Positions 504 to 19,413 of a stretch of DNA of 19,413 bases are shown in pieces. Source of the stretch: a virus. Lineage: Duplodnaviria; Heunggongvirae; Uroviricota; Caudoviricetes. How positions within the stretch are numbered: position 1 is the first letter of the stretch; every line of letters starts with the position of its first letter. Made by a program: the position numbers and the translations under genes. Where the stretch lies: the IMG/VR virus record IMGVR_UViG_2645727843_000010. One strand, 5' to 3'. The notes beneath the pieces are model-generated. The model was not told the origin of the DNA and ran no database searches. It was given only the letters and a program-made list of their open reading frames with translations.

Positions 504-582
504 TAGGGTGTCACCAGTAGGGGCTTTCAACGGTACTATGCGGGTTTGAGCGGCATAAATTACCACTGAAAGCCCTTAAACG

Positions 583-2408: not shown

Positions 2409-2418
2409 GGAGAACCGT

Positions 2419-3086: not shown

Positions 3087-3149
3087 GTAATTAACCAGAG
3101 TTTTTAACGCACTTAATCGTGCGGGGCTTCTTTTTGCCTGGAGAAAGTC

Positions 3150-3900: not shown

Positions 3901-4172
3901 GTATTCGTATCGAAATTGGCGAACGTTATGTCGTTACCAGTGACAGCTTTCAGTTTATTCTCCACGAGAAAAAGAGAGCGGAAAGCGGTAAAAACGCCGG
4001 TCAGGAATGGCTGGCGGTGGTTGGTTATTATCCGAAATTAAGCCAGCTCGTTTCCGGCCTGATGCATCACGATATTCTGACCGGAAGCGCAAAGTCTTTT
4101 GCTGATTTAAACGCGCAGGTTGAGCAACTCAGCAAGCGTTGTTCAGAGGCTTTTGGCTCATATGGCCGTTAA
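3897..4172 (+). CDS. Hypothetical early protein, 91 aa, P2 orf83-like
   Basis: ATG at 3897 overlaps the upstream stop (ATGA); 3' end overlaps the A start by 11 nt. Confidence 0.6.
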   Translation: MSIRIEIGERYVVTSDSFQFILHEKKRAESGKNAGQEWLAVVGYYPKLSQLVSGLMHHDILTGSAKSFADLNAQVEQLSKRCSEAFGSYGR

Positions 4173-6447
4173 AGCCTCCGGGCGTTTTGTCCCTCCGTCA
4201 GCATTTGCCGCAGGCACCGGTAAGGCGTTTACCGGTGCTTATGCATGGAACGCGCCACGCGAGGCTGTCGGGCGCGAAAGACCCCTTACACGTGACGAGA
4301 TGCGTCAGGTGCAAGGTGTTTTATCCACGATTAACCGCCTGCCTTACTTTTTGCGCTCGCTGTTTACTTCACGCTATGACTACATCCGGCGCAATAAAAG
4401 CCCGGTGCACGGGTTTTATTTCCTCACATCCACTTTTCAGCGTCGTTTATGGCCGCGCATTGAGCGTGTGAATCAGCGCCATGAAATGAACACCGACGCG
4501 TCGTTACTGTTTCTGGCAGAGCGTGACCACTATGCGCGCCTGCCGGGAATGAATGACAAGGAGCTGAAAAAGTTTGCTGCCCGTATCTCATCGCAGCTTT
4601 TCATGATGTATGAGGAACTCAGCGATGCCTGGGTGGATGCGCATGGCGAAAAAGAATCGCTGTTTACGGATGAGGCGCAGGCTCACCTGTATGGTCATGT
4701 TGCTGGCGCTGCACGTGCTTTCAATATTTCCCCTCTCTACTGGAAAAAATACCGTAAAGGGCAGATGACCACGAGGCAGGCATATTCTGCCATTGCCCGT
4801 CTGTTTAACGATGAGTGGTGGACTCATCAGCTTAAAGGCCAGCGTATGCGCTGGCATGAGGCGTTACTGATAGCTGTCGGGGAAGTCAATAAAGACCGTT
4901 CTCCTTATGCCAGTAAACATGCCATTCGTGATGTGTGTGCACGCCGCCAGGCAAATCTGGAATTTCTTAAATCGTGTGACCTTGAAAACAGGGAAACCGG
5001 CGAGCGCATCGACCTTATCAGTAAGGTGATGGGAAGTATTTCTAATCCTGAAATTCGCCGGATGGAGCTGATGAACACCATTGCCGGTATTGAGCGTTAC
5101 GCCGCTGCAGAGGGTGATGTGGGGATGTTTATCACGCTGACCGCGCCGTCAAAGTATCACCCGACACGTCAGGTCGGAAAAGGCGAAAGTAAAACCGTGC
5201 AGCTTAATCACGGCTGGAACGATGAGGCATTTAATCCAAAGGATGCGCAGCGTTATCTCTGCCGTATCTGGAGCCTGATGCGCACGGCATTCAAGGATAA
5301 TGATTTACAGGTCTACGGTTTGCGTGTTGTTGAACCACACCACGACGGAACGCCGCACTGGCATATGATGCTTTTTTGTAATCCACGCCAGCGTAACCAG
5401 ATTATTGAAATCATGCGTCGCTATGCGCTCAAAGAGGATGGCGACGAAAGAGGAGCCGCGCGAAACCGTTTTCAGGCAAAACACCTTAATCGGGGCGGTG
5501 CTGCGGGGTATATCGCGAAATACATCTCAAAAAACATCGACGGCTATGCACTGGATGGTCAGCTCGATAACGATACCGGCAGACCTCTGAAAGATACTGC
5601 CGCGGCTGTTACTGCATGGGCGTCAACGTGGCGCATCCCGCAATTTAAAACGGTTGGTCTGCCGACAATGGGGGCTTACCGTGAACTACGCAAATTGCCT
5701 CGCGGCGTCAGCATTGCTGATGAGTTTGACGAACGCGTCGAGGCTGCACGCGCTGCCGCAGACAGTGGCGATTTTGCGTTGTATATCAGTGCGCAGGGTG
5801 GGGCAAATGTTCCGCGCGATTGCCAGACTGTCAGAGTCGCCCGTAGCCCGTCGGATGAAGTTAACGAGTACGAGGAAGAAGTCGAGAGAGTGGTCGGCAT
5901 TTACGCGCCACATCTCGGCGCGCGTCATATTCATATCACCAGAACGACGGACTGGCGCATTGTGCCGAAAGTTCCGGTCGTGGAGCCTTTGACTTTAAAA
6001 AGCGGCATCGCCGCGCCTCGGAGTCCTGTCAATAACTGTGGAAAGCTCACCGGTGGTGATACTTCGTTACCGGCTCCCACACCTTCTGAGCACGCCGCAG
6101 CAGTGCTTAATCTGGTTGATGACGGTGTTATTGAATGGAATGAACCGGAGGTCGTGAGGGCGCTCAGGGGTGCATTAAAACACGACCTGAGAACGCCAAA
6201 CCGTCAGCAAAGAAACGGAAGCCCGTTAAAACCACATGAAATTGCACCATCGGCCAGACTGACCCGGTCGGAAAGAATGCAAATTACCCGTATCCGCGTT
6301 GACCTTGCTCAGAACGGTATCAGGCCGCAGCGATGGGAGCTTGAGGCGCTGGCGCGTGGCGCGACCGTAAATTATGACGGGAAAAAATTCACGTATCCGG
6401 TCGCTGATGAGTGGCCGGGATTCTCAACAGTAATGGAGTGGAAATGA
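4162..6447 (+). CDS. A: P2 A protein, rolling-circle replication initiator / nickase, 761 aa
   Basis: The track ORF starts at a TTG at 4120; ATG at 4162 (MAVKASGRF...) gives 761 aa, the P2 A length as recalled. Near-identity to P2 A over the whole length from memory. Confidence 0.95.
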   Translation: MAVKASGRFVPPSAFAAGTGKAFTGAYAWNAPREAVGRERPLTRDEMRQVQGVLSTINRLPYFLRSLFTSRYDYIRRNKSPVHGFYFLTSTFQRRLWPRIERVNQRHEMNTDASLLFLAERDHYARLPGMNDKELKKFAARISSQLFMMYEELSDAWVDAHGEKESLFTDEAQAHLYGHVAGAARAFNISPLYWKKYRKGQMTTRQAYSAIARLFNDEWWTHQLKGQRMRWHEALLIAVGEVNKDRSPYASKHAIRDVCARRQANLEFLKSCDLENRETGERIDLISKVMGSISNPEIRRMELMNTIAGIERYAAAEGDVGMFITLTAPSKYHPTRQVGKGESKTVQLNHGWNDEAFNPKDAQRYLCRIWSLMRTAFKDNDLQVYGLRVVEPHHDGTPHWHMMLFCNPRQRNQIIEIMRRYALKEDGDERGAARNRFQAKHLNRGGAAGYIAKYISKNIDGYALDGQLDNDTGRPLKDTAAAVTAWASTWRIPQFKTVGLPTMGAYRELRKLPRGVSIADEFDERVEAARAAADSGDFALYISAQGGANVPRDCQTVRVARSPSDEVNEYEEEVERVVGIYAPHLGARHIHITRTTDWRIVPKVPVVEPLTLKSGIAAPRSPVNNCGKLTGGDTSLPAPTPSEHAAAVLNLVDDGVIEWNEPEVVRALRGALKHDLRTPNRQQRNGSPLKPHEIAPSARLTRSERMQITRIRVDLAQNGIRPQRWELEALARGATVNYDGKKFTYPVADEWPGFSTVMEWK

Positions 6448-6899
6448 TGGCAAAAATTCACGAGGTAAAGCTGCACGCAAAATATTTTGACCTTGTGCTG
6501 GAAGGAAAGAAACGCGCAGAGTTTCGGAAAAATGACCGTAATTATGAGCGCGGGGACACGTTGATTTTGCATGAATGGGTGCAGGGTGTGTATACGGGGC
6601 GAAAGGTTGAAGCCCGGATAACAGATGTTACTGACTTGTCAGACTGGCTGGAAGATTATGTCTTGCTAAGTATTGAGCTGCTTAATACAGGCGCATATGA
6701 GTTTGTGAACTGGAAAGAACTTAGTGAGCGTGGTCTGGTATTCAGAATTAATCATGAAATTATGCATCAGCTCGGCCTTGCTGTTGTGTATGAACCAGAG
6801 ACGGGGATGTCTGGCGGGGCAGTGGTTGGTGCGGATGGGATATGGAACTATTCAGATGAACAGGTGGAGCGTGCACAGCAAAACGGGTGGCTTGGATAA
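6444..6899 (+). CDS. ASCH/DUF3850-like domain protein, 151 aa, at the P2 orf91 position
   Basis: ATG at 6444 overlaps the A stop (ATGA). The N-terminal ~50 aa (KIHEVKLHAKYFDLVLEGKKRAEFRKNDRNYERGDTLILHEW) resembles the ASCH-like fold. Confidence 0.65.
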   Translation: MMAKIHEVKLHAKYFDLVLEGKKRAEFRKNDRNYERGDTLILHEWVQGVYTGRKVEARITDVTDLSDWLEDYVLLSIELLNTGAYEFVNWKELSERGLVFRINHEIMHQLGLAVVYEPETGMSGGAVVGADGIWNYSDEQVERAQQNGWLG

Positions 6900-7105
6900 T
6901 GCACAGAATACCAGGCGAGATACCGCAGCATAAAACTAAAAATATCAAGCTGATGGCCATTGTTCACCGTCTACAGCAGATTATGGTCAACGAAAATCTG
7001 ACGCCCGATGAGCTGGTCGGGTGTGCCGAAATAGTCCGGGATAATTACGTATGGCTTAACTATATCGGTCAGCCCAGCGCTGCACCGCCACCACGCAGAC
7101 GATAG
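6899..7105 (+). CDS. Hypothetical small protein, 68 aa
   Basis: ATG at 6899 overlaps the upstream stop (TAATG); the track start at 6887 is GTG. No recognisable domain. Lies at the backbone/cargo boundary. Confidence 0.35.
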   Translation: MHRIPGEIPQHKTKNIKLMAIVHRLQQIMVNENLTPDELVGCAEIVRDNYVWLNYIGQPSAAPPPRRR

Positions 7106-7294
7106 AGAACGCAGCCAGCTCAGGATTGGCGGGGGATAGAATAACGAGCATAGTGATGCGATTAGACAAACAGACTGACTGGTACACTTAGGATGGTTAT
7201 AGTGGTTTCTAAGTGCTTTAGCGATACATCTGGTGGACTGTTTTACCAACCTCAGAGTTAGCTGAATTTTTAACAAAATACCATTTTGATAGAT

Positions 7295-7322
7295 TTGCCT
7301 AATTTATTAATTAAACTATACT
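7295..7322 (+). promoter_or_regulatory. Candidate sigma70 promoter for the 78-aa / membrane-protein operon (-35 ttgcct, 16-bp spacer, -10 tatact)
   Basis: Hexamers read from sequence in the AT-rich intergenic region about 90 nt upstream of the 7414 start. Weak -35. Confidence 0.3.
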
Positions 7323-7413
7323 GGACTTATACACAGTGTTCTGTTAGTTGTTAGGTTGGTAAGATATTGTGAGGAGGTGATTACTATCTTGGCATCAATC
7401 AAGTGGAGGTTAA

Positions 7414-7650
7414 ATGATGAATATATTTGAACGTATTATAGGTAAAGCTGCTATTGAAAAGGAAAGAGAACTGGCGAGGAGGCTTGAAGCATCTGGAACA
7501 AACACTGTTGAGGTGGTAGGTCGAGGCGCGATTATCACGTCTAAAGAAGACTTGGCAAGCTCAGATACAGTAAAATTGATGAAAATTAAAGCAAGAAAAA
7601 TAGTTTCTGAGCAGGTAAAGCAAGAAGAAAAAATGGCTAAAGGGAATTAA
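7414..7650 (+). CDS. Hypothetical small charged protein, 78 aa, first gene of a two-gene cargo operon
   Basis: ATG at 7414 with GGAGG 5 nt upstream. K/E-rich and hydrophilic. Stop is 2 nt before the next ATG. Confidence 0.6.
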   Translation: MMNIFERIIGKAAIEKERELARRLEASGTNTVEVVGRGAIITSKEDLASSDTVKLMKIKARKIVSEQVKQEEKMAKGN

Positions 7651-7652
7651 TA

Positions 7653-8414
7653 ATGTTTGCTTTATTAATTATTCCATTACTTGTGAGTGGTTATATTGTA
7701 TTAACCACTCATCCTTATCATTTCTATAGATTACACCGTTATGATGGGCAGTTGTTATATATGAAGTCAGCCGCCTTTGGTCTGTGGTGTTTTATATGGA
7801 CATTGATTATAGCTTACTTAATAAAATGGATATGTCCGAGCTTCCATCCTGTCACGATGGTTCGGGAACAATTAGATCTCAAACTTAGTGACAATGGTAC
7901 TGAAAGAATCATAGGATGGATGATTTTACTTTCATGTGGAACGATATTTTTGGCTTGGATATGGAGTGTCGGTGCTAGATATTTGGTTATATATAGAGCT
8001 AAAATTATAAATTATATCCAAGGGGTAAAGGCTGCCAATATTGATTATGAGAATCTTGTCATGCTAAGGATGAGGCAAGAGCTTATTAATGATAATCCAA
8101 TGGATGAAATATTTTTTGATTCGTTAGTTGATAGACGTTCAATACTTATTACGTTGCAAAATAAAAAGACATATGTAGGAATTGTTAACGCATTAGGTGA
8201 GCCTAACGAGAAAGAAGGACCTAACCAGTATGTTTCAATCTATCCTATTATCTCTGGGTATAGAGATAAGGATTCATTGAAAGTAATCTTGGTGAATGAA
8301 TATAGAGAGCTTGAGGATGCTGATACTAGTATCATCTTTCCACTAAAAGAAATTTCGCAAGTTTCTTGGTTTGATATGGATATTCATAAAATAGTTGAAA
8401 ATAATAAGGTGTAG
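7653..8414 (+). CDS. Hypothetical membrane protein, 253 aa: three predicted N-terminal TM helices plus a ~145-aa soluble C-terminal domain
   Basis: ATG at 7653. Hydrophobic segments at about residues 1-19, 41-63 and 87-109. AT-rich codon usage unlike the phage backbone. No family recognised. Confidence 0.75.
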   Translation: MFALLIIPLLVSGYIVLTTHPYHFYRLHRYDGQLLYMKSAAFGLWCFIWTLIIAYLIKWICPSFHPVTMVREQLDLKLSDNGTERIIGWMILLSCGTIFLAWIWSVGARYLVIYRAKIINYIQGVKAANIDYENLVMLRMRQELINDNPMDEIFFDSLVDRRSILITLQNKKTYVGIVNALGEPNEKEGPNQYVSIYPIISGYRDKDSLKVILVNEYRELEDADTSIIFPLKEISQVSWFDMDIHKIVENNKV

Positions 8415-8417
8415 TAA

Positions 8418-8442
8418 ATGGTCACCTATAAAAGGTGACCAT
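8418..8442. terminator. Bidirectional hairpin between convergent cassettes (atggtcacct-ataaa-aggtgaccat)
   Basis: Perfect 10-bp stem with 5-nt loop, between the stop at 8414 (+) and the stop at 8448 (-); T/A-rich flanks on both sides. Confidence 0.6.
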
Positions 8443-8447
8443 AATGC

Positions 8448-10712
8448 TTATTTTTGACGAATCCTGATTTTTGGTTGTTCACGAACAACAATATCAGTTT
8501 CTTTCCAACCAAGATTATTTATTTCAACCTCGGCTTCGTTGTAGACTGTAGTAGAATTGGCAAGAGATCTTAACGTAATAGCCAATACAGCACGTTGAGG
8601 TGAAGATAGAGGCTCTTGCTCTGCTCGTCTCTGAACATCAAGTTTAAGTCTCCATTGCTCCCCATTTATACCTTGCGGAAATTGTTTTCTATAAACTTTG
8701 ACTGGAGACCATTTGAAGCCATTTTCTATCAGTACCTTTTCAAATAATTCACTCTTTTCTTTTATTTGTGGAATTTTTCCGCTATGTATCCATTTAGCGT
8801 TAACTGGATCATAAGTGTAAGTCCCGAATGACACATCCACATTAGAACGGCAATATTCAGATGGGTAGTCATAATCAAGCGGTGGAGAATAAACGAGTGT
8901 CATAATAATTTCACCTGTGAATTTTCCATCCTCAGTACGTAATGACTGTGGTATTACAAATGGCGTTCTACTGAATTCAATACCTTCTCGGGTATCTATT
9001 TCAAATAGAAATGTAATCTCATTTTTATTGCAACCAATAATATCATTTATATGATCGCTTGGGCGTCCAAATCCTTGATAATTAAACGCATAATGCTCCG
9101 TTTTGGCTGGTGAGTTTTTTAACGCAGAATGAATTAATAGTGCCTTGATACGTTCAGGCGATGGTGAAATAGAACCATTAACATCTAGTTCATGCCACAG
9201 TGATGCCGCTAAACTTGAGATTAACGGTGCTGATAAACTTGTGCCAATACTTTCGCAAAGAGCATTGTCCTCGCCAATAGCTATGATTCCGGTATGTTCA
9301 CAGTTTAATTTACTGTCACAATTACCTCCAAAGTGATTTATCTCTGGTTTGGGTATAAAGGCTGGGCCGGGACCTCTTCTAGAAAAAGATGAAGGTTCAA
9401 ATCTTTTGACCACAGAGTCAGACGATTCTAAATGGGCAACTGAGCCAACAGTTAATGAACGAACAGAATCTGCGGGGGCTGATATTCTGTCATGCCCACC
9501 TAATTCTTGAGGAGGCCAGGTTCGTTGAGGATCATAAATGTAGTTGCCGGATGCTACGACGAAAAGACAATCATGCTCATCATGAAGTGCATTTAAAAAA
9601 TGCCCCAATTCAGAGAAGCTGTCTTCAGAACATGGGGATTGACAACCTAATGACAGATTCCATACACGTACTTCTGGATAGGTGGTCACAGCCTCTCGGA
9701 TAGCTTTCATTAATTGTGGCAATTTGAGCGTACCATCTTTGGGAAAGGCTGCAACATCAACAATTTCAGCTTGGCATTGAGGAAAACCAGCATAGTTATT
9801 CAACCATCTTCCATTAATTGCTAAACTTGCAACCATGTTCCCATGAGAATAGTCGTGTTCTCCTTTTACTAAATCTAAACTATCCCAAATCCATGGCCTA
9901 AGTATGTTGTTATTGGGATCGACTCCGCTATCTATAATTCCGAGTAGTGGATAATGTTTATCCTCTTGAGGTAAGGGAAAATCATCTAGGTCTAGAGTTT
10001 CAGCAGGAATATATTGCGATACTGTATGAGTAAGACCAAATGTTGGCATAGGTTCTAATTTTCGTATGCCAATAAAACTTGCCAGTTGGGCGATGTTATC
10101 ATTCCCTTTTACTTCATATATACTCAAATCTGAACTGATATCATACTTTTTGGGTTTTTGTATTCCTAGTTCATCTGCAAATTCCATTAATTCTTTGTCG
10201 ATACTGCGGTTAGTTGTTCTATCTTTATGGTCAAAGAGTTTCAGAAGAAAACTATCTGATTTATTTTTATCTATAACATCATGGTTAAGACTAAAAGGTT
10301 CGATCTTTTCAATTACAGCAATATGTACTGTTCCATTATGAGAATTAGTGCTATTTTCAATTTTTTTGCGAAGTTGTGCTAACCCTTTTTCAGTAACACT
10401 TATAAGTAATTCTCCAAAATTATCACTGCCTATTACGGGACATGTATTATCACCTAATAGGCTTGATGGGCGATGTGACTTAGCAAGAGCTTTTTCATGA
10501 AGAGTAACTCTAGCCACCGCCGGTATATTGGGCCATTTTTTAAATGAGCTCTGGAAAAAATTTTTAACGTCATCGACTTCTTGTTTGAGTCTATTTTTTA
10601 GACTAGTTGTTACTGTTCGGATAGGTTGTTTCTTTCCGAAATTATATGTTTTTTCAGTAAAATCTTGAGGTGTCGCCTCAATTATTTTTATTGGTCTTTC
10701 TTTGTTACTCAT
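8448..10712 (-). CDS. Subtilisin-like serine protease (peptidase S8), 754 aa; IetS-like
   Basis: Catalytic motifs in canonical order: Asp (GIIDSGVD), His (YSHGNMVASLA), oxyanion Asn (VVASGN), Ser (GTSLSAPLISS). ATG overlaps the upstream ATPase stop (ATGA). Confidence 0.9.
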   Translation of the reverse strand: MSNKERPIKIIEATPQDFTEKTYNFGKKQPIRTVTTSLKNRLKQEVDDVKNFFQSSFKKWPNIPAVARVTLHEKALAKSHRPSSLLGDNTCPVIGSDNFGELLISVTEKGLAQLRKKIENSTNSHNGTVHIAVIEKIEPFSLNHDVIDKNKSDSFLLKLFDHKDRTTNRSIDKELMEFADELGIQKPKKYDISSDLSIYEVKGNDNIAQLASFIGIRKLEPMPTFGLTHTVSQYIPAETLDLDDFPLPQEDKHYPLLGIIDSGVDPNNNILRPWIWDSLDLVKGEHDYSHGNMVASLAINGRWLNNYAGFPQCQAEIVDVAAFPKDGTLKLPQLMKAIREAVTTYPEVRVWNLSLGCQSPCSEDSFSELGHFLNALHDEHDCLFVVASGNYIYDPQRTWPPQELGGHDRISAPADSVRSLTVGSVAHLESSDSVVKRFEPSSFSRRGPGPAFIPKPEINHFGGNCDSKLNCEHTGIIAIGEDNALCESIGTSLSAPLISSLAASLWHELDVNGSISPSPERIKALLIHSALKNSPAKTEHYAFNYQGFGRPSDHINDIIGCNKNEITFLFEIDTREGIEFSRTPFVIPQSLRTEDGKFTGEIIMTLVYSPPLDYDYPSEYCRSNVDVSFGTYTYDPVNAKWIHSGKIPQIKEKSELFEKVLIENGFKWSPVKVYRKQFPQGINGEQWRLKLDVQRRAEQEPLSSPQRAVLAITLRSLANSTTVYNEAEVEINNLGWKETDIVVREQPKIRIRQK

Positions 10713-11872
10713 AATATCTCTCTATAATTCTTAGTTAGCCTTGACACTTTAGCATTTGAAAGCCCTAGTATTTTTGCTATCTTTCGTATTGTAAATCTTT
10801 TGGGATTGTATTCTCTGAGAGTGGTCACAATCTTTATAAGTAAATTATCTTCTTCATCAAATGTAACTCCCTTCGCTTCTAAGATAGCCTCGACTAAAAA
10901 TCGGGTATCGATTTGTTTATTATTGTAAACCAGAGCATGTCGCTCAGATCTTAAGCAGCATTGTTCTATAAATGAGCAGTTTAGCCCTGATGATATTTCC
11001 GCAAGGTCATCAACAAAATCGTCATATGTAGCTTTTATGTTTGAATATTGTTCAAATAGTTGTTTTCTGACTTCAAAATCAGGCAATCCAATAGATATTC
11101 TATACTCAAAGCGCCTCCAAACTGCGCTATCTAGAAGATTTTCATGATTACTTGCAGCAATCAATATTGTTTCTTCAGGTAGATTGTCAATATTTTGCAA
11201 TAAAGAAACCACCACCCTCTTCAGTTCACCTAACTCATGCTGATCATCTCTAGCCTTTGCTAGAGAATCTAGTTCATCTAGAAATAAAACACATGGTGCT
11301 TTACTTGCATACTCAAATAGCTGCCTGATATTTTTAGAAGTAGACCCCAGATATGATGAGACTAAGGAGTCACATCTTGCAGTAAGAAGCGGTAAATTTA
11401 GACAGGATGCAATATATTTTGATGTCAAGGTTTTACCACAACCTGGTGGCCCATATAAAATCATAGAGGATGTCACGCCAAGACCGGCATCCTTTAATTC
11501 TTTAGCTCGTTCAGTGAAAGTCAAAAATTCTTTAATTTTTTTCAGAGTGCTATCTTTCAACAATGGGAGTTGAATTTCAGAAGACGGTTGAGTTACGTCT
11601 GCTAAATCAAATTTAGTTTCTTTATCTACAGGTAATGTATCAAGACGTTCAAAAATAGGTGATGTACTGCGTGATACTTTCTGCAAGTTAAACGTGTTTT
11701 TATCTTGAATACTACCTCTAATGGCTGAAGCAAGCTCAGGCAGCCCCATAGAATCATAGGAACGCGCGAGTTTCGAAGCCTGCCGAACAAAAGCAACTTT
11801 ATCCCCTTTGAGTCCAAGACTGATAAGCTGCGAAAGTATCTCGTTTGTGGTCATTTGTGATACAAACCTCAT
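10709..11872 (-). CDS. Classical AAA+ ATPase, 387 aa; IetA-like
   Basis: Walker A (GPPGCGKT), Walker B (VLFLDELD), sensor-1 Asn (IAASN), arginine fingers (AVWRRF). No strong Shine-Dalgarno seen, so the start is less certain (alternative Met 6 codons in). Confidence 0.88.
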   Translation of the reverse strand: MRFVSQMTTNEILSQLISLGLKGDKVAFVRQASKLARSYDSMGLPELASAIRGSIQDKNTFNLQKVSRSTSPIFERLDTLPVDKETKFDLADVTQPSSEIQLPLLKDSTLKKIKEFLTFTERAKELKDAGLGVTSSMILYGPPGCGKTLTSKYIASCLNLPLLTARCDSLVSSYLGSTSKNIRQLFEYASKAPCVLFLDELDSLAKARDDQHELGELKRVVVSLLQNIDNLPEETILIAASNHENLLDSAVWRRFEYRISIGLPDFEVRKQLFEQYSNIKATYDDFVDDLAEISSGLNCSFIEQCCLRSERHALVYNNKQIDTRFLVEAILEAKGVTFDEEDNLLIKIVTTLREYNPKRFTIRKIAKILGLSNAKVSRLTKNYREIL

Positions 11873-12113
11873 TAATCTGTTGTCTAAATGGCTTATAGGT
11901 GAGACAAATTTCTATTTTAATGTAGTTTATATGTATTTTGGTGAAACGAACACTATGTTTTACATAAATCTTTCAGGTTTGGAGTTCTTGGAGGGCATAG
12001 AGTTGCATCAATTTGCATTCTAATTAGACTTTTTTATTGCTATCGTATTCTACATGTGACTAGGTCTGCCCTTCCTGATGCGTTTGCATTAAAACCTCCC
12101 CATGAAGCGGGCG

Positions 12114-12132
12114 GGCGAGGCGGGGAAAGCAC
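12114..12132. other. Putative cos cohesive-end sequence ggcgaggcggggaaagcac
   Basis: Matches the P2 19-nt cohesive end as I recall it. Sits in a GC-rich block just downstream of Q, where P2 has cos. Confidence 0.55.
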
Positions 12133-12274
12133 TGCGCGCTGGCGGTGGTGCGGATTTTATTTTTTCAGCGTCTGAGCGCGTCGTGACGGCGCTTAGTCTG
12201 CCCGTTGAGGCGTTGGTGTGTCTGCGGGGTGTTTTGTGCGGTGGTGAGCGTGTGAGGGGGTGATGACGGGGTGT

Positions 12275-12296
12275 AAAAAAGCCGCCCGCAGGCGGC
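12275..12296 (-). terminator. Rho-independent terminator after Q (GCCGCC-TGCG-GGCGGC then T6 on the minus strand)
   Basis: GC stem plus a U-tract immediately 3' of the Q stop. Confidence 0.7.
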
Positions 12297-12301
12297 GATG
12301 T

Positions 12302-13336
12302 TCAGCCGTTGTCAGTGTCCAGTGAGTAGTTTTTAAATCGGATGACCTCCTGACCGAGCCAGCCGTTTATCTCGCGGATCCTGTCCTGTAACGGGATAAG
12401 CTCATTGCGGACAAAGACCTTTGCCACTTTCTCAATATCACCCAGCGACCCGACGTTCTCCGGCTTGCCCCCCATCAACTGAAAGGGGATGCGATGCGCG
12501 TCCAGCAGGTCAGCGGCGCTGGCTTTTTTGATATTAAAAAAATCGTCCTTCGTTGCCACTTCACTGAGCGGGATAATTTTAATGCCGTCGGCTTTCCCCT
12601 GTGGGGCATAGAGAAACAGATTTTTAAAGTTATTGCGGCCTTTCGACTTAACCATGTTTTCGCGAAGCATTTCGATATCGTTGCGATCCTGCACGGCATC
12701 GGTGACGTACATGATGTATCCGGCATGAGCGCCGTTTTCGTAATACTTGCGGCGGAACAGCGTGGCCGACTCATTCAGCCAGGCAGAGTTAAGGGCGCTG
12801 AGATATTCCGGCAGGCCGTACAGCTCCTGATTAATATCCGGCTCCAGCAGGTGAAACACGGAGCCGGGCGCGAAAGGTGTCGGCTCATGGAAGGACGGCA
12901 CCCACCAGTAAACATCCTCTTCCACGCCACGGCGGGTATATTTTGCCGGTGAGGTTTCCAGTCTGATGACCTTACCGGTGGTGCTGTAACGCTTTTCCAG
13001 AAACGCATTACCGAACACCAGAAAATCCAGCACAAAGCGGCTGAAATCCTGCTGAGAAAGCCACGGGTGCGGGATAAACGTTGAAGCCAGAATATTGCGT
13101 TTGACGTAAATCGGTGAGCTGTGATGCACGGCAGCACGCAGGCTTTTTGCCAGACCGGTAAAGCTGACCGGTGGCTCATACCATCTGCCGTTACTGATGC
13201 ACTCGACATAATCCAGAATGTCACGGCGGTCGAGTACCGGCACCGGCTCACCAAAGGTGAATGCCTCCATTTTCGGGGCGCTGGCGGTCATTTTTTTTGC
13301 CGCAGGTTGCGGTGTTTTCCCTTTTTTCTTGCTCAT
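12302..13336 (-). CDS. Q: Portal vertex protein, 344 aa
   Basis: ATG (cat at 13334-13336). Length equals P2 Q as recalled; strong recognition. Start overlaps the P stop. Confidence 0.95.
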   Translation of the reverse strand: MSKKKGKTPQPAAKKMTASAPKMEAFTFGEPVPVLDRRDILDYVECISNGRWYEPPVSFTGLAKSLRAAVHHSSPIYVKRNILASTFIPHPWLSQQDFSRFVLDFLVFGNAFLEKRYSTTGKVIRLETSPAKYTRRGVEEDVYWWVPSFHEPTPFAPGSVFHLLEPDINQELYGLPEYLSALNSAWLNESATLFRRKYYENGAHAGYIMYVTDAVQDRNDIEMLRENMVKSKGRNNFKNLFLYAPQGKADGIKIIPLSEVATKDDFFNIKKASAADLLDAHRIPFQLMGGKPENVGSLGDIEKVAKVFVRNELIPLQDRIREINGWLGQEVIRFKNYSLDTDNG

Positions 13337-15108
13337 CAGTAAAACTCCAGAATGGTGGATGTCAGCGGGGTGCTGATACCGGCGGTGAGTGGCTCATTTA
13401 ACAGGGCGTGCATGGTCGCCCAGGCGAGGTCGGCGTGGCTGGCTTCCTCGCTGCGGCTGGCCTCATAGGTGGCACTGCGTCCGCTGCTGGTCATGGTCTT
13501 GCGGATAGCCATAAACGAGCTGGTGATGTCGGTGGCGCTGACGTCGTATTCCAGACAGCCACGGCGGATGACGTCTTTTGCCTTGAGCACCATTGCGGTT
13601 TTCATTTCCGGCGTGTAGCGGATGTCGCGCGCGGCGGGATAGAACGAGCGCACGAGCTGGAACACGCCGACACCGAGGCCGGTGGCATCAATACCGATGT
13701 ATTCGACGTTGTATTTTTCGGTGAGTTTGCGGATGGATTCCGCCTGAGTGGCAAAGTCCATGCCTTTCCACTGGTGACGCTCAAGTATTCTGAATTTGCC
13801 ACCGGCCACCACCGGCGGTGCCAGCACCACGCATCCGGCACTGTCGCCACGGTGTGACGGGTCGTAACCAATCCAGACCGGGCGGGAGCCGAACGGATTC
13901 GCGGCAAACGGCGCATAGTCTTCCCATTCTTCCAGCGTGTCGACCATGCAGCGTTGCAGCTCCTCGAACGGGAATACCGACGCCTTGTCGTCAACAAATT
14001 CACACATGAACAGGTTTTTAAAATCGTCGGCGCTGTTTTCACGTTTGAGCTGCTCAATGTCGAACAGCGTGCAGCCACCTTTCAGGGCGTCCTCAATGGT
14101 GACAATCTGCCGCCACTGGCCGTCCGCACAGAGAAGCCCACCGGCAAGGGCGTTATGACTGACGTCGATTTCCACGCGTTCGGCGGCGCTGGCGCGTCCC
14201 CGGTTGAACAGTTCACCTGACCAGAACGGGTAGGCGTCGTGCGCCAGCGTGGACGGGGTGGAGAAATAGGTCGAACGCAGGTGACTCTGTGAGGCCATAC
14301 CTGATGCCACCTTACGCAGTACCTGAAAATTCGGGATCCAGAAAATCTCGTCGACGTACAGGTCGCCGTTATGGCTCTGTGCGGTGTTGGAGTTGGTGCC
14401 GAGAAAAATCAGTTTTGCGCCGTTATTGCCCAGGACAATCGGGTCACCGGTCAGGTCAACGTCAACCAGCCGGGCAAAGGCGATGATGTATTCACGGAAC
14501 ACATACGCCTGCGTTTTACTGGCCGACAGAAAAATCTGGTTATGGCCGGTTTTCAGGGCGCGCAGCAGCGCCTCGCGGGAAAAATAAAACGTTGCGCCAA
14601 TCTGGCGGGATTTCAGGATATCGCGGATGCGGTGCTCAAGCCCGGCGCGATACCAGTGCAACTGATAGTCGAAAGACTGCTCAAAGAAAATCTGCTCCAG
14701 CTTTTCGATGGCCTCGTCACTGAAAAAATTCTTTTTCGGTTTGCGACGCCCGCCTTTGTTGCGGTTAGCGACGTTCGGATTAAGGTCTGCCTCGTTGCCG
14801 GTCTGACTGTAGCGGTTGACCCGTGCCAGTCGTTCAATCTGGCGTCCCAGCAGGTCAATTTCCTTGAAGTCACCGCCGGTTTTCTGCGGTTTGATGATGA
14901 GCTGGGTCAGCCGCGCTTCCAGACTCATTTCGACACGGCTGATGGGGGCAACGCTGTCCCAGCCGTCGCGCTGTTTCCAGCTCTGCACCGTCGGGCGTTT
15001 CATCTGCAACATGGCGGCAATCTGCGGCACGGAAAACCCCTGCCAGTACAGCAGCGCCGCCTGACGACGCGGGTCGTGCAAAAGAGTGGTGTCTGTGGTG
15101 ATGGTCAT
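13336..15108 (-). CDS. P: Terminase large subunit (ATPase/nuclease), 590 aa from the internal ATG
   Basis: The track ORF extends 10 codons upstream; ATG at 15106-15108 (MTITTDTTLLHDPRRQAALLYWQG...) gives the P2 P length as recalled. Confidence 0.92.
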   Translation of the reverse strand: MTITTDTTLLHDPRRQAALLYWQGFSVPQIAAMLQMKRPTVQSWKQRDGWDSVAPISRVEMSLEARLTQLIIKPQKTGGDFKEIDLLGRQIERLARVNRYSQTGNEADLNPNVANRNKGGRRKPKKNFFSDEAIEKLEQIFFEQSFDYQLHWYRAGLEHRIRDILKSRQIGATFYFSREALLRALKTGHNQIFLSASKTQAYVFREYIIAFARLVDVDLTGDPIVLGNNGAKLIFLGTNSNTAQSHNGDLYVDEIFWIPNFQVLRKVASGMASQSHLRSTYFSTPSTLAHDAYPFWSGELFNRGRASAAERVEIDVSHNALAGGLLCADGQWRQIVTIEDALKGGCTLFDIEQLKRENSADDFKNLFMCEFVDDKASVFPFEELQRCMVDTLEEWEDYAPFAANPFGSRPVWIGYDPSHRGDSAGCVVLAPPVVAGGKFRILERHQWKGMDFATQAESIRKLTEKYNVEYIGIDATGLGVGVFQLVRSFYPAARDIRYTPEMKTAMVLKAKDVIRRGCLEYDVSATDITSSFMAIRKTMTSSGRSATYEASRSEEASHADLAWATMHALLNEPLTAGISTPLTSTILEFY

Positions 15109-15281
15109 GAATACCTCGCCGTGATGAATACACGGCAAGGCTACTGAGTCGCGTCCCGCGATTCGCTAAGGTGCTGTTGTGTCAGTGATAAGCCATCCGG
15201 GACTGATGGCGGAGGATGCGCATCGTCGGGAAACTGATGCCGACATGTGACTCCTCTAATCACTATTCAGGACTCCTGACA
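15109..15281. promoter_or_regulatory. Divergent P / O intergenic region; expected site of Ogr-dependent late promoters
   Basis: Position only. I scanned for a TGT-N12-ACA dyad and did not find a clean match. Confidence 0.3.
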
Positions 15282-16316
15282 ATGGCAAAAAAAGTCTCAA
15301 AATTCTTTCGTATCGGCGTTGAAGGTGACACCTGTGACGGGCGTGTCATCAGTGCGCAGGATATTCAGGAAATGGCCGAAACCTTTGACCCGCGTGTCTA
15401 TGGTTGCCGTATTAACCTGGAACATCTGCGCGGCATCCTGCCTGACGGTATTTTTAAGCGTTATGGCGATGTGGCCGAACTGAAGGCCGAAAAGATTGAC
15501 GATGATTCGGCGCTGAAAGGCAAATGGGCGCTGTTTGCGAAAATCACCCCGACCGATGACCTTATCGCGATGAACAAGGCCGCGCAGAAGGTCTACACCT
15601 CAATGGAAATTCAGCCGAACTTTGCCAACACCGGCAAATGTTATCTGGTGGGTCTGGCCGTCACCGATGACCCGGCAAGCCTCGGCACGGAATACCTGGA
15701 ATTCTGCCGCACGGCAAAACACAACCCCCTGAACCGCTTCAAATTAAGCCCTGAAAACCTGATTTCAGTGGCAACGCCTGTTGAGCTGGAATTTGAAGAC
15801 CTGCCTGAAACCGTGTTCACCGCCCTGACCGAAAAGGTGAAGTCCATTTTAGGGATGTTTGTTTTTATGCGCCAGACGCTGCCGCACCAGACCATGCAGC
15901 GTGAATCGGATTATCGCTGGCCGTCAAATTCCCGTATTGGTAAACGGGATGCCTATCAGTTTCTCGGTGTGGGTGAGGAAAACATGACGCTTGCCGGTGT
16001 GCTTTATCCCGAACTGACCGGCGGAAAGCTGACGATGACCACGCTCAGGCTGATGGCAGAGGAAGGCCGGGCGTGGCCGTTGCTGGATGGCACCGGCATG
16101 ATTTACGGCATGTATGTCATCAGCAAGGTGAGTGAAACAGGGAGTATTTTCTTTGCAGACGGCACACCCCGGAAAATTGATTTTACGCTGTCACTCACCC
16201 GCGTTGATGAATCACTGGCCGCGCTTTATGGCGATATCGGTAAACAGGCGGAATCGCTCATCGGTAAGGCTGGCAGTATGGCGACCAAATTCACGGGTAT
16301 GACGGGGGCGGGATAA
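15282..16316 (+). CDS. O: Chimeric ORF, 344 aa: N-terminal 189 aa of capsid scaffold/protease O fused in frame to about 155 aa of tail protein U; deletion junction near 15848
   Basis: ATG at 15282 (MAKKVSKFFRIGVEGDTCDG... is the P2 O N-terminus). After ...TEKVKSI the sequence switches to LGMFVFMRQTLPHQTMQRESDYRWPSNSRIGKRD..., which is P2 gpU-like. The track ORF begins 22 codons upstream without a Shine-Dalgarno. Confidence 0.85.
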   Translation: MAKKVSKFFRIGVEGDTCDGRVISAQDIQEMAETFDPRVYGCRINLEHLRGILPDGIFKRYGDVAELKAEKIDDDSALKGKWALFAKITPTDDLIAMNKAAQKVYTSMEIQPNFANTGKCYLVGLAVTDDPASLGTEYLEFCRTAKHNPLNRFKLSPENLISVATPVELEFEDLPETVFTALTEKVKSILGMFVFMRQTLPHQTMQRESDYRWPSNSRIGKRDAYQFLGVGEENMTLAGVLYPELTGGKLTMTTLRLMAEEGRAWPLLDGTGMIYGMYVISKVSETGSIFFADGTPRKIDFTLSLTRVDESLAALYGDIGKQAESLIGKAGSMATKFTGMTGAG

Positions 16317-17479
16317 TGCTGGATGCGCTGACATTTGATGCAGGCAGTACGCTGACGCCGGATTACATGCTGATGCTCGACAGCAGGGATATTACCGGCA
16401 ATATCAGCGACCGTCTGATGAGCATGACCCTGACGGATAACCGGGGCTTTGAGGCTGACCAGCTTGATATTGAACTGAACGATGCCGACGGGCAGGTCGG
16501 GCTGCCGGTTCGTGGCGCTGTCCTGACGGTTTATATCGGCTGGAAAGGTTTTGCCCTGGTATGCAAAGGGAAATTTACCGTTGATGAGGTTGAACACCGG
16601 GGCGCTCCGGATGTGGTCACCATCCGCGCCCGGAGTGCAGATTTTCGCGGGACGCTCAATTCCCGCCGGGAAGGCTCCTGGCATGACACCACGCTCGGTG
16701 CGATTGTTGAGGCGATAGCCTCCCGTAACAGGCTGGAAGCCAGTGTCGCTCCGTCACTGGCCGGAATTAAAATCCCGCACATCGACCAGTCGCAGGAGTC
16801 TGATGCGAAATTCCTGACCCGTCTTGCAGAACGCAACGGCGGTGAGGTCTCGGTAAAAATGGGAAAACTGTTGTTTCTCAAAGCGGGGCAGGGGGTGACG
16901 GCCAGCGGTAAAAAAATCCCGCAGGTCACCATAACCCGCAGCGACGGCGACCGCCACCATTTTGCGATTGCTGACCGTGGAGCCTATACCGGCGTAACGG
17001 CAAAGTGGCTTCACACCAAAGACCCGAAGCCGCAAAAGCAGAAGGTAAAACTGAAACGCAAAAAGAAAGAAAAACACCTGCGCGCACTGGAGCACCCGAA
17101 AGCGAAACCAGTCACGCAGAAGAAAGCGCCAAAAGTACCGGAAGCGCGCGAAGGTGAATACATGGCCGGTGAGGCTGACAACGTTTTTGCCCTGACCACG
17201 GTATATGCCACGAAAGCACAGGCCATGCGTGCTGCTCAGGCGAAGTGGGACAAACTGCAACGGGGCGTTGCGGAGTTCTCCATCATCCTGGCTACCGGTC
17301 GTGCAGATATTTACACGGAAACACCGGTCAGAGTGTCAGGCTTTAAGCGCGTCATAGACGAGCAGGACTGGACAATCACTAAGGTGACACATTTTCTGAA
17401 TAATAGCGGCTTCACGACGTCCCTGGAGCTTGAGGTCAGGCTTTCTGATGTGGAGTACGAAACAGAAGATGATGAGTGA
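16316..17479 (+). CDS. D: Tail protein D, 387 aa
   Basis: ATG overlaps the upstream stop (TAATG). Length and sequence match P2 gpD as recalled. Confidence 0.92.
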   Translation: MLDALTFDAGSTLTPDYMLMLDSRDITGNISDRLMSMTLTDNRGFEADQLDIELNDADGQVGLPVRGAVLTVYIGWKGFALVCKGKFTVDEVEHRGAPDVVTIRARSADFRGTLNSRREGSWHDTTLGAIVEAIASRNRLEASVAPSLAGIKIPHIDQSQESDAKFLTRLAERNGGEVSVKMGKLLFLKAGQGVTASGKKIPQVTITRSDGDRHHFAIADRGAYTGVTAKWLHTKDPKPQKQKVKLKRKKKEKHLRALEHPKAKPVTQKKAPKVPEAREGEYMAGEADNVFALTTVYATKAQAMRAAQAKWDKLQRGVAEFSIILATGRADIYTETPVRVSGFKRVIDEQDWTITKVTHFLNNSGFTTSLELEVRLSDVEYETEDDE

Positions 17480-17560
17480 TGTTTTTATTTTATCTATTTG
17501 TTTTATAAGGGTAAATTAACTAAAATGGCACCATCAACAAAACCGGAAGAGGTGCTCGCG

Positions 17561-17779
17561 ATGTTTCATTGTCCTTTATGCCAGCATGCCGCACATGCGC
17601 GTACAAGCCGCTATATCACTGACACGACAAAAGAGCGTTATCACCAGTGTCAGAACGTGAATTGCAGCGCCACGTTCATCACTTATGAGTCGGTACAGCG
17701 ATACATCGTGAAGCCGGGAGAAGTCCACGCCGTAAGACCGCACCCGTTGCCGTCAGGGCAGCAAATTATGTGGATGTAA
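17561..17779 (+). CDS. ogr: Ogr late-gene transcription activator, zinc finger, 72 aa
   Basis: ATG at 17561 (MFHCPLCQHAAHARTSRYITDTTKERYHQCQNVNCSATF...), four-Cys zinc finger. The track ORF starts at an upstream TTG. Matches P2 Ogr / E. coli OgrK length from memory. Confidence 0.95.
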   Translation: MFHCPLCQHAAHARTSRYITDTTKERYHQCQNVNCSATFITYESVQRYIVKPGEVHAVRPHPLPSGQQIMWM

Positions 17780-17792
17780 TTACAAACAGGAA

Positions 17793-17816
17793 GCCCCTCA
17801 GTCGAGGGGCTTTTTT
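17793..17816 (+). terminator. Rho-independent terminator after ogr (gcccctc-agtc-gaggggc then T6)
   Basis: Perfect 7-bp GC stem followed by TTTTTT. Confidence 0.8.
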
Positions 17817-17879
17817 GTCGATGTGGTCAATGTGTGGACGTGACCAGAAATAAATCCTTTTATTTCATTGTATTACGCG

Positions 17880-17967
17880 TAAAAAATAAGCCCGTGTAAG
17901 GGAGATTACACAGGCTAAGGAGGTGGTTCCTGGTACAGCTAGCATTTTATGGGTTATGTTTTTCAGC
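17880..17967 (-). ncRNA. cyaR: CyaR (RyeE) Hfq-dependent sRNA
   Basis: Reverse complement reads GCTGAAAAACATAACCCATAAAATGCTAGCTGTACCAGGAACCACCTCCTTAGCCTGTGTAATCTCCCTTACACGGGCTTATTTTTT, which matches CyaR as I recall it, including the CCACCTCC anti-Shine-Dalgarno region and the terminator hairpin plus U-tract. Ends are within about 2 nt. Confidence 0.88.
17881..17907. repeat. attR core, 27 bp, identical to 477-503; also the 3'-terminal 27 nt of cyaR
   Basis: Exact repeat read from sequence. Confidence 0.85.
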
Positions 17968-18002
17968 GAAACGGATGATAACCTTAATAAATGCAGCTGT
18001 AT

Positions 18003-18018
18003 GTGATCGGTTTCTAAG
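18003..18018. promoter_or_regulatory. Putative CRP site upstream of cyaR (TGTGA-N6-TCTAA)
   Basis: One consensus half-site and one weak half-site, centred about 43 nt upstream of the inferred CyaR 5' end, close to a class II position. cyaR is known to be CRP-activated. Confidence 0.5.
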
Positions 18019-18051
18019 AATTTTCCATCCGGGAAAAATAATCGAAATTAA

Positions 18052-19413
18052 TCACTTACCGTGGGGATTACGCGTGGTTTCCCCGGAGAAATTACGCATC
18101 AGCAGCGCGTAATTGAGCTCAAGATCCTGCGGGACCGGGAGCCACACAGTATAACCATCGCCTGGTGCTATCGGCATAGCTTCGCCTTTGGCGTTTTCCA
18201 TGTGCTCAAGGGTAAAATTAATGTTGCCTTGCGGCGTCATCAGCTCAAGGCTGTCGCCAACGGAGAATTTATTTTTCACCGCTACCGCCGCGAGGTCCCC
18301 CTTGCGCTCACCGGTAAACTCACCAACAAACTGCTGGCGGTCAGAAACTGAATAACCGTATTCGTAGTTCTGATAATCGTCGTGAGTATGACGACGCAGG
18401 AAACCTTCGGTATAGCCACGATGCGCCAGACCTTCCAGAGTTTCCAGCAGGCTGGTATCGAACGGTTTTCCCGCAGCGGCGTCATCGATAGCTTTGCGGT
18501 AAACCTGTGCGGTGCGTGCACAATAGTAGAAAGATTTGGTACGACCTTCGATTTTCAGCGAATGCACGCCCATTTTGGTCAGGCGTTCTACATGGGCGAT
18601 GGCGCGCAGATCTTTCGAGTTCATGATGTAAGTGCCGTGCTCATCTTCAAACGCGGTCATATACTCGCCCGGACGCTGGGCCTCTTCGATCATAAACACT
18701 TTGTCGGTTGGTGCGCCGATACCCAGCGTCGGCTCAACATTTTGCACCGGAATCGGCTCGTACTTGTGTACGATGTTGCCAACATCATCTTCTTTCCCTT
18801 CCTGGACGTTGTACTCCCAGCGGCAGGCGTTGGTGCAGGTGCCCTGGTTCGGGTCGCGCTTGTTGATATAGCCAGAGAGCAGGCAGCGACCGGAGTAGGC
18901 CATGCACAGCGCGCCGTGAACGAAGATCTCGATCTCCATATCCGGCACCTGATTGCGGATCTCTTCAATCTCTTCCAGCGACAGCTCGCGAGAGAGGATC
19001 ACGCGGGTCAGGCCCATTTGCTGCCAGAATTTCACCGTCGCCCAGTTCACGGCGTTAGCCTGCACCGAAAGGTGGATCGGCATTTCAGGGAAGTGCTCAC
19101 GCACCAGCATAATCAGCCCTGGATCGGACATAATCAGCGCATCCGGCCCCATTTCCACCACCGGTTTCAGGTCACGGATAAAGGTTTTCAGCTTGGCGTT
19201 GTGCGGTGCAATGTTGACCACGACATAAAACTTTTTCCCCAGCGCGTGGGCTTCATTGATGCCGAGCTGAAGATTTTCGTGGTTGAATTCGTTGTTGCGC
19301 ACACGCAGGGAATAACGCGGCTGGCCCGCATAAACAGCATCTGCGCCATAAGCGAAAGCGTAACGCATATTTTTCAGCGTTCCCGCCGGGGAAAGGAGTT
19401 CCGGTTTAAACAT
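18052..19413 (-). CDS. yegQ: Peptidase U32-family protein (YegQ/TrhP-like), 453 aa, host chromosomal flank
   Basis: Complete ORF whose ATG is the last 3 nt of the window. Sequence recognised as E. coli YegQ from memory; adjacent to cyaR as in E. coli. Confidence 0.88.
   Translation of the reverse strand: MFKPELLSPAGTLKNMRYAFAYGADAVYAGQPRYSLRVRNNEFNHENLQLGINEAHALGKKFYVVVNIAPHNAKLKTFIRDLKPVVEMGPDALIMSDPGLIMLVREHFPEMPIHLSVQANAVNWATVKFWQQMGLTRVILSRELSLEEIEEIRNQVPDMEIEIFVHGALCMAYSGRCLLSGYINKRDPNQGTCTNACRWEYNVQEGKEDDVGNIVHKYEPIPVQNVEPTLGIGAPTDKVFMIEEAQRPGEYMTAFEDEHGTYIMNSKDLRAIAHVERLTKMGVHSLKIEGRTKSFYYCARTAQVYRKAIDDAAAGKPFDTSLLETLEGLAHRGYTEGFLRRHTHDDYQNYEYGYSVSDRQQFVGEFTGERKGDLAAVAVKNKFSVGDSLELMTPQGNINFTLEHMENAKGEAMPIAPGDGYTVWLPVPQDLELNYALLMRNFSGETTRNPHGK

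Follow-up and report, generated by a model that had tools for sequence, protein, structure and literature searches.

The window analysed here, by which we mean the whole stretch of 19,413 nucleotides in IMG/VR virus record IMGVR_UViG_2645727843_000010, contains a P2-like prophage together with the E. coli chromosome on either side of it. The left flank (1–475) corresponds to yegR and the right flank (17950–19413) to yegQ, both of which were found in essentially all E. coli genomes. Intact att repeats of 27–28 nt bound the prophage inside the window, so that an integrase and direct att cores are present at the known P2 attachment locus (yegR/yegQ). Because yegR and yegQ border the element within the window, the P2 genes that it lacks do not lie just outside, as the earlier note on this sequence had allowed they might. 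The features of the element are as follows.

477–503: attL core, 27 nt, identical to the attR core and corresponding to the P2 attP core (24356–24382)
583–1596, minus strand: integrase, 337 aa, full length, 99.7% identity to P2 Int (tblastn)
1712–2011, minus strand: C-type repressor of the immunity switch, 65% identity to P2 C
2133–2408, plus strand: cox, 84% identity to P2; the immunity switch region spans 1712–2408
2419–6447, plus strand: early/replication operon with orf78, B, orf80–83 and A (A at 4162–6447), full length (tblastn)
Within 6444–8414, plus strand: orf91-like gene (DUF3850/ASCH + DUF7415) of the cos-proximal hotspot
6899–7105, 7414–7650 and 7653–8414, plus strand: three small ORFs of unknown function in the cos-proximal hotspot
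8448–10712, minus strand: IetS, S8 peptidase (PADLOC, Pfam)
10709–11854, minus strand: IetA, AAA ATPase (PADLOC, Pfam); the IetS and IetA pair replaces P2 old/tin
12085–12153: cos region, with the 19-nt cohesive-end sequence at 12114–12132; corresponds to P2 33546–33593 and P2 1 onward
12302–13336, minus strand: portal Q, full length, 98.8% identity (tblastn)
13336–15108, minus strand: large terminase P, full length, 100% identity (tblastn)
15170–15200 (approximate to ~2 nt): Ogr/delta activator binding site serving both divergent late promoters, P_P and P_O, conserved, equal to P2 3057–3087
15282–16316, plus strand: O'::'U chimeric ORF, 344 aa
15849–15850: deletion junction, with TT as the sole exact microhomology
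16316–17479, plus strand: gpD, full length, 98.7% identity
17561–17779, plus strand: ogr late activator, 72 aa, 100% identity to P2
17881–17907: attR core, identical to the attL core

Comparison with the P2 genome (blastn, NC_001895) resolved the element into five segments that are collinear with P2, at 95.8–98.1% identity. These are 476–1841 (P2 24355–25720; att, int and part of C), 2155–6667 (P2 26027–30539; cox to A and part of orf91), 12085–12132 (P2 33546–33593; right cos end), 12114–15853 (P2 1–3738; left cos end, Q, P and O codons 1–190) and 15849–17907 (P2 22324–24382; U from codon 5, D, ogr and the attP core), with a single junction from mid-O to the start of U. When 41 P2 proteins were searched against the window by tblastn, 17 were matched at 65–100% identity, and Q, P, D, ogr, int, C (65%), cox, orf78, B, orf80–83 and A proved to be full length and stop-free. 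No tblastn match in any frame of the window was obtained for N, M, L, X, Y, K, lysA, lysB, R, S and orf30, nor for V, W, J, I, H, G, fun(Z), FI, FII, E and T. The entire N-to-T block of 22 P2 genes is absent from the window, and P2 tin and old likewise gave no tblastn match there. The classes of gene lost are capsid, small terminase (M), head completion, lysis and nearly all of tail and baseplate. With these genes gone the element cannot make virions; it lacks the complete morphogenesis and lysis module of a functional phage, both O and U are truncated, and it is a defective derivative. The earlier note had described the integrase, immunity switch, replication genes, cos, Q, P, D and ogr as retained, everything between O and U in P2 as missing along with the terminase small subunit gene, and a single deletion as the cause; the blastn and tblastn results agree with this description throughout.

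The translation of the ORF at the junction is a 344-aa protein in which residues 1–189 of P2 gpO are followed in frame by residues 5–159 of gpU, reading ...KVKSI/LGMF... across the join (slash). The earlier note had placed the fusion of the N-terminal 189 residues of gpO to U, from about its fifth residue, at ...KSI/LGMF... near 15848, and protein alignment and tblastn reproduced its motif, coordinates and residue numbers exactly. In Pfam searches, Phage_GPO matched ORF residues 6–191 (E 3.8e-87) over profile positions 1–185 of 268, the C-terminal third of the model being missing from the fusion, and Phage_P2_GpU matched residues 191–310 (E 2.5e-43) over the full profile. Against P2, O residues 1–191 showed 99.5% identity and U residues 5–159 showed 97.4%, with zero stops (tblastn); with E values of 1e-131 and 4e-103, these matches are far stronger than chance would give. 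The C-terminal part is therefore genuinely U-like, at 97% identity to gpU, which disposes of one of the two objections that the earlier note had foreseen. The overlap of the U stop with the D start in P2 is kept at the boundary of the fusion with gpD, where the gpD start overlaps the fusion stop. The label of this 344-aa protein at NCBI is “GPO family capsid scaffolding protein”, yet the protein is a deletion chimera.

To resolve the join at the nucleotide level, we aligned it to P2 and to the nearest alleles of each side, namely the O allele of E. coli D5 (one mismatch in 304 nt) and the U allele of Ecol_224 (identical over 302 nt). The O allele reads ...AAGTCCATTTT up to the break and continues with TGGCCGC, the U allele reads ...CTCGCGTT and continues with AGGGATG, and the window reads ...AAGTCCATTTTAGGGATG. 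The junction sequence is CCATTTT/AGGGATG at 15849–15851, in which exact microhomology is confined to the 2 nt TT at 15849–15850; a TTWGG 5-mer is imperfect. The endpoints on P2, which the earlier note had proposed to map together with any microhomology, are thus fixed, and the exact microhomology amounts to just these 2 nt. Since by calculation about 16% of random joins are expected to share at least 2 bases, the join is effectively blunt and illegitimate. In these alignments the junction showed no repeat or recombinase site beyond TT/TTWGG, and we rejected homologous or site-specific recombination on this ground. The O–U deletion would have arisen by illegitimate recombination of the replication-slippage or end-joining type. 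Measured on P2 the deleted interval is 3736–22325 (18,590 bp); measured on the full-length prophage of SC480, which occupies the same locus and has the same IetAS cargo, it is 16,616 bp (L010 15844–32459), and the true size depends on the content of the G-FI hotspot in the ancestor. One collinear junction is most simply explained by a single event, and successive nested deletions are also possible. A random join has a prior of ~1/3 of being in frame, which is not significant alone.

The deletion allele is real, inherited and rare. An exact-protein look-up returned the identical 344-aa protein on 11 contigs, comprising NCBI isolates (CTT76018.1, CTU54900.1, EIX1640044.1 and HHZ6532121.1), one Logan run and two ENA metagenomes. 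Four distinct places were returned for the fusion protein (L002, L003, L004 and L005). L002, a 138-kb contig of GCA_001283665.1, shows 5 substitutions relative to the window over 14.1 kb, and L003 (Logan SRR18080539) differs from L002 by 1 substitution in 19.7 kb; L004 and L005 are short ENA metagenome contigs, each with substitutions of its own. At least two carriers lie at the same chromosomal site, and the two on long contigs have near-identical flanks. The junction itself was searched for in 5,426 complete E. coli genomes, among JGI metagenome contigs and in GTDB species-representative genomes, each time with no match; in IMG/VR it matched the window alone, listed there as UViG 2695420394_000006, so that all carriers come from the exact-protein look-up. 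The population comparison suggested in the earlier note therefore shows a shared but scarce allele, which we take to have been inherited vertically in a small E. coli lineage. That the junction is an assembly artefact, or that a rearrangement has moved the missing block elsewhere in the genome, is scarcely credible. The same junction and identical product recur in independent NCBI, Logan and ENA assemblies with their own SNPs, which rules out misassembly; the junction offers no repeat to mislead an assembler, and chromosomal genes flank both att sites.

The chimera, of 38 kDa, keeps gpO up to residue 189, including S107 as well as D19 and H48, which we take to be catalytic residues of gpO; gpO is reported to cleave itself at the 141/142 site. 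In gpO, residues 1–141 form the protease (S107A being protease-deficient), residues 142–194 a middle part with an uncertain role and residues 195–284 the scaffolding domain (PMC7552001). The fusion accordingly retains the protease domain and most of 142–194, and the entire scaffolding domain is missing. For the U part, a solved structure exists for one relative only, the pyocin R2 “ripcord” PA0626 (6u5b), whose GpU-like region occupies residues 159–286 of 290. Because the F-operon promoter is gone with the deletion, any transcription of O'::'U and D would come from P_O and would need Ogr or delta. A chimera with an acquired function can be imagined on this basis, in which the Ogr or delta of an incoming P2-like phage or P4 would activate P_O in trans and the hybrid would poison baseplate or capsid maturation. 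P_O and the activator site are intact, D19, H48 and S107 are kept, the GpU domain is complete but for 4 residues, and the ~158-aa N-terminal extension of PA0626 indicates that an N-terminal addition need not block assembly; the fusion is also in frame, and its only SNP among the carriers is synonymous. We nevertheless consider such a function very unlikely, given that one random join in three is in frame, that the allele is young and rare, and that other O fusions have many partners and breakpoints, some of them out of frame (P0027, P0064). The chimeric protein is most likely a functionless by-product.

These other O fusions were recovered by searching the chimera against 5.8 billion protein clusters, a search that is biased to in-frame products and yields approximate breakpoints. 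They include O(1–201)::S (P0020, 14 members), O(1–208)::T C-terminus (P0018), O(1–275)::J (P0023 and P0024), O(~1–185)::D C-terminus from a more distant P2-like phage (P0072) and O(1–208)::P, which contains terminase sequence (P0021). P lies on the opposite strand in P2, so the last of these implies an inversion. P0027 and P0064 are out-of-frame truncations of O. We also considered O residue ~189 as a recombination hotspot and rejected it, as the other fusions break at ~185, 201, 208 and 275. Judged from these cluster sequences, deletion beginning in O recurs as a route of decay, and its endpoints are scattered.

The total divergence of the carriers is just 1–9 SNPs, and all 8 coding substitutions among them are synonymous, with a single SNP, also synonymous, in the fusion ORF. 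Taken alone, 8 of 8 synonymous changes would be unlikely under neutrality and would point to purifying selection, acting since the deletion, on Q, P, O::U, D and ogr. We did not accept purifying selection from this count of 8 synonymous to 0 non-synonymous changes, because at most of the 8 SNP sites both alleles also circulate in other P2-like phages (P2, DCE7 or SC480) and the five differences between the window and L002 cluster in 13208–17668. Import of pre-filtered variants by recombination with functional P2-like relatives is an adequate alternative, explaining the SNP pattern equally well.

The gene order and att core of the element are those of P2 and of the SC480 and BS74R-D prophages, and its ogr and P are identical to those of P2 at the protein level. 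Taken over all retained P2 segments, nucleotide identity is 96.7–98.1%. Its cos shows 2 mismatches in 48 nt against P2 33546–33593. Relative to P2 and SC480, the element lacks the 16.6–18.6 kb from mid-O to the start of U, and its repressor/operator region differs from both: over window 1842–2154, blastn aligned neither P2 nor the SC480 prophage. On this sequence divergence the element is probably heteroimmune to both. Where P2 has old/tin, the element has IetAS, which the SC480 prophage carries as the same cargo in the same position.

IetA and IetS are adjacent on the minus strand with overlapping ORFs, and their Pfam domains are AAA and Peptidase_S8, respectively. Their PADLOC matches are near complete, covering profile positions 1–747 of 749 for IetS (E 1.1e-273) and 3–370 of 374 for IetA (E 9.1e-132). 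The adjacency of an IetA AAA ATPase and an IetS S8 subtilase-like peptidase places the pair in IetAS, a predicted defence system. The 5.7-kb stretch 6600–12300, which holds IetAS and cos, occurs at 99.2–100% identity in 12 complete genomes, among them one with a prophage that has a different integrase and lies at another site, beside pflA. The P2 cos-proximal position between gpA and gpQ (A/orf91 to Q; old/tin) is a documented defence hotspot (PMC9122126), and defective P2-like elements are common and keep nearly identical defence genes (PMC13586616). The sharing of 6600–12300 across sites fits both the published rapid exchange of hotspot cargo and this latter pattern.

The earlier note had taken the retention of cos, P and Q as a sign either of a domesticated defence carrier or of an element that a helper could mobilise. 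All three lie left of the O breakpoint and were spared by the geometry of the deletion, and no selective explanation of their presence is needed. Of the two proposals the first stays plausible, IetAS being intact, while mobilisation gained no positive evidence. Under the first, the remnant would persist for the benefit that IetAS, and maybe the hotspot ORFs, bring to the host, with the loss of lytic and structural genes having removed the risk of host killing. Such domestication would complement prophage decay, and we hold it to be possible but rather doubtful. Besides the intact IetS and IetA with their near-full-length PADLOC matches, the 6600–12300 DNA is 100% identical to that of a functional-looking prophage at another att site, and L003 has lost A and kept IetAS; the location in the old/tin hotspot (PMC9122126) points the same way, as does the report that defective P2-like elements whose defence genes are nearly identical are common (PMC13586616). 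Against this stands the youth of the allele: with carriers only 1–9 SNPs apart, an intact IetAS is expected without selection, and int, cox, A, P and Q are equally intact in the window. The lineage is also rare, with no representative in 5,426 complete genomes.

Under the second proposal the element would behave as a helper-dependent satellite: once derepressed, an excised circle of 17,404 bp would replicate with its own A and origin and be packaged from cos in the capsids of a P2-like helper, either co-resident or superinfecting. It could be packaged as a dimer of 2 x 17,404 = 34,808 bp, near the 34,872 bp of three P4 genomes, a load that a head of P2 size accepts, if inefficiently, as three P4 genomes (PMC6893505). 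The element has intact int, cox, B, A, cos, P and Q as well as both att cores. Its repressor, 65% identical to that of P2, would leave a P2 helper unrepressed. Transduction of the element together with IetAS by a heteroimmune P2-like helper could follow, and the element would then be a satellite “in statu nascendi” descended from the lineage of its helper. We judge both the satellite-like behaviour and this transduction improbable. A tblastn search with 13 P4 proteins revealed no homologues of sid, psu, epsilon or alpha, only ogr matching delta, and no gene known here would derepress the element upon helper infection. L003 has lost most of A and, as inferred from the P2 annotation, the origin. 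Both long-contig carriers sit at one locus with near-identical flanks, and IMG/VR gave the window only, JGI metagenome contigs and GTDB representatives none, so that the horizontal spread expected of a satellite is not seen in this small sampling; the presence of cos, P and Q follows from where the deletion lies.

P4-like satellites resemble the element in being small, cos-bearing and integrative, in having no capsid or tail genes and in encoding an activator of the Ogr/Delta type, and the first 26 nt of P4 match window 12114–12139 at 96%. The combination of cos, an integrase of its own and no structural genes follows trivially here from deletion in a phage of the helper type. P4 carries sid, psu, epsilon and alpha, none of which has a homologue in the element, and the P4-like satellites are an independent conserved family, whereas the element derives from the helper type itself by a recent deletion. 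A further parallel is Sp13 of E. coli O157 Sakai, a P2-like prophage that is without most morphogenetic genes and keeps integration and early functions (PMC2669165). Its excision, replication and low-level packaging have been published (PMC2669165), an example of such an element keeping these abilities. Sp13 is reported to be missing genes for packaging in addition to those for the head, and to have a gene resembling P4 epsilon (PMC2669165). Its deletion is different from the one described here, as no complete E. coli genome searched has the junction of the element.

In our interpretation, the element is very probably a P2-like prophage that suffered one internal deletion and is undergoing ordinary decay in a small clonal E. 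coli lineage. A P2-like (Peduovirus) prophage would have integrated between yegR and yegQ of E. coli and then lost its interior in a single deletion, probably while resident, since a genome deprived of its capsid and tail genes has no means of spreading alone. The break would have joined O codon 189 to U codon 5 by illegitimate recombination; with O and U on the same strand and the join happening to be in frame, the 344-aa chimeric ORF would result. Transcription of O'::'U and D would now start at P_O and run to the ogr terminator. The remnant would since have been passed on vertically in a small E. coli lineage, still decaying and still with an intact IetAS. Precedents exist both for P2-like prophages without morphogenesis genes, namely Sp13 (PMC2669165), and for defective P2-like elements with defence genes (PMC13586616). 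The latter share with the element intact defence genes despite lost phage functions. They are mostly pseudogenised in mobility and replication, whereas the element has one clean large deletion and no pseudogenes among its retained genes. The element is a further instance of a well-known kind, the decay of P2-like prophages; ordinary decay fits all the data, with neither a new mechanism nor a new kind of element.

That decay continues in this lineage is evident from L003, which carries a second deletion equivalent to window 4413–6577 (2.2 kb). This deletion removes most of A, fusing A1–82 to the orf91-like gene by joining A codon 82 to codon 46 of the latter, in frame and with a 6-nt GGTGCA overlap. 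As the nick site of the origin lies inside A according to the P2 annotation, the origin was presumably lost in L003 too. Both deletions of this lineage are in frame, an outcome with a chance of ~1/9.

The prophage decay inferred here can be followed across states of the yegR–yegQ site. The site is empty in NZ_CP062895.1, whose right flank is identical, and is occupied by a full-length P2-like prophage in SC480 (NZ_LR778153.1) and BS74R-D (NZ_CP063332.1). It holds the O–U deleted form in the window and L002, and the form with both O–U and A deleted in L003. Many unrelated complete genomes share the 8.4-kb right flank at 100% identity, which makes it uninformative for the relatedness of the carriers. 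The series, from empty through intact and half-deleted to loss of replication and finally the D'–ogrK relic of K-12, is a tidy illustration of prophage decay, and the window provides a base-resolved, cleanly mapped case of a temperate phage turning into a grounded remnant. The presence of IetAS in a dead phage at yegR–yegQ also illustrates the retention of defence systems. The cryptic remnant of K-12 (D' + ogrK) shares the yegR/yegQ site, and both it and the element arose by deletion in a P2-like prophage. The K-12 relic consists of the last 213 nt of D, ogrK and attR, which equals the loss of window 495–17266, whereas the element keeps 17.4 kb with int, immunity, replication, cos, Q, P and defence genes. 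The right end of the K-12 remnant (3' D, ogr, attR and CyaR) is 99.2% identical to the window.

Independent gpO chimeras were identified in public data, comprising O::T, O::S, O::P, O::J and O::D fusions (P0018, P0020, P0021, P0023, P0024 and P0072, proteins from the cluster search with the O::U fusion as query), and their breakpoints in O were scattered. P2-like prophages thus seem to decay commonly through internal deletions starting in O. In the O::P chimera the partner is terminase sequence, and an inversion is implied. Among relatives of gpU, only the pyocin R2 “ripcord” PA0626 has a solved structure (PDB 6u5b chain h; compared with window 15849–16313). In PA0626, which is 290 aa long, the GpU-like part makes up the C-terminal 128 residues; GpU domains with N-terminal extensions therefore exist in nature.

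The O::U element in Logan run SRR18080539 (contig L003) contained an additional 2.2 kb deletion, which created a second fusion with a gene of the following composition in the window:
L003 1055–1618: A::orf91-like fusion (window 4162–4412 joined to 6578–6899)
6444–6899, plus strand: orf91 homologue; first 75 residues match P2 (DUF3850/ASCH), followed by DUF7415

In this fusion, A codons 1–82 are joined in frame to codons 46–151 of the orf91-like gene, with a 6-nt GGTGCA overlap at the junction. Most of A, in which the P2 origin nick site is situated, was removed. Both deletions in the O::U lineage preserve the reading frame, for which the chance is about 1 in 9. The DUF7415 domain is missing from P2 orf91; since the match to P2 ends after residue 75, the boundary of the variable hotspot lies inside the orf91-like gene.

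Beyond this boundary, the cos-proximal hotspot carries the following features:
6899–7105, plus strand: small ORF, 68 aa, between the orf91-like gene and IetS
7414–7650, plus strand: small ORF, 78 aa, same interval
7653–8414, plus strand: small ORF, 253 aa, same interval
8448–11854, minus strand: intact IetS/IetA anti-phage pair, in the place of P2 old/tin

The 5.7-kb stretch with IetAS (window 6600–12300) is shared, at 99.2–100% identity, by 12 complete E. coli genomes. Strain DCE7, which is among them, harbours it in a P2-like prophage that adjoins pflA and encodes a different integrase, which shows that the IetAS cargo is exchanged between phage backbones. The three small ORFs (window 6899–8414) accompany the cargo in all 12 genomes. 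Pfam and PADLOC searches returned no match for them, and their PHROG matches were limited to families of unknown function; they may represent a further accessory or defence module.

All eight coding substitutions among the junction-bearing contigs were synonymous:
13208, 14206, 14218, 15079, 16286, 16423, 16558 and 17668: substituted window positions

Five of them, confined to 13208–17668, separate the window from L002 (a GCA_001283665.1 contig), and at most of the eight positions other P2-like phages likewise show the two alleles. The distribution suggests that the differences came from recombination with relatives and not from new mutations.

Neither P2 nor the full-length prophage of strain SC480 at the same site matched the repressor/operator region (window 1842–2154) at the nucleotide level. 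For C, identity to the P2 protein is just 65%, and for Cox it is 84%. Heteroimmunity towards both P2 and the SC480 prophage is probable for this element.

At the right end, the attR core (window 17881–17907) is overlapped by an sRNA gene:
17884–17969, minus strand: CyaR/RyeE sRNA gene (Rfam RF00112, 100.7 bits)

This places the P2 attachment core at the 3′ end of the sRNA gene, which is reconstituted by the prophage end. The D′-ogrK relic of K-12 MG1655 (locus L014, 2318–2830) aligned with window 17267–19413 at 99.2%, and its left breakpoint falls within the attL core (window ~494). The relic thus represents a more decayed form of this type of prophage at the same locus.
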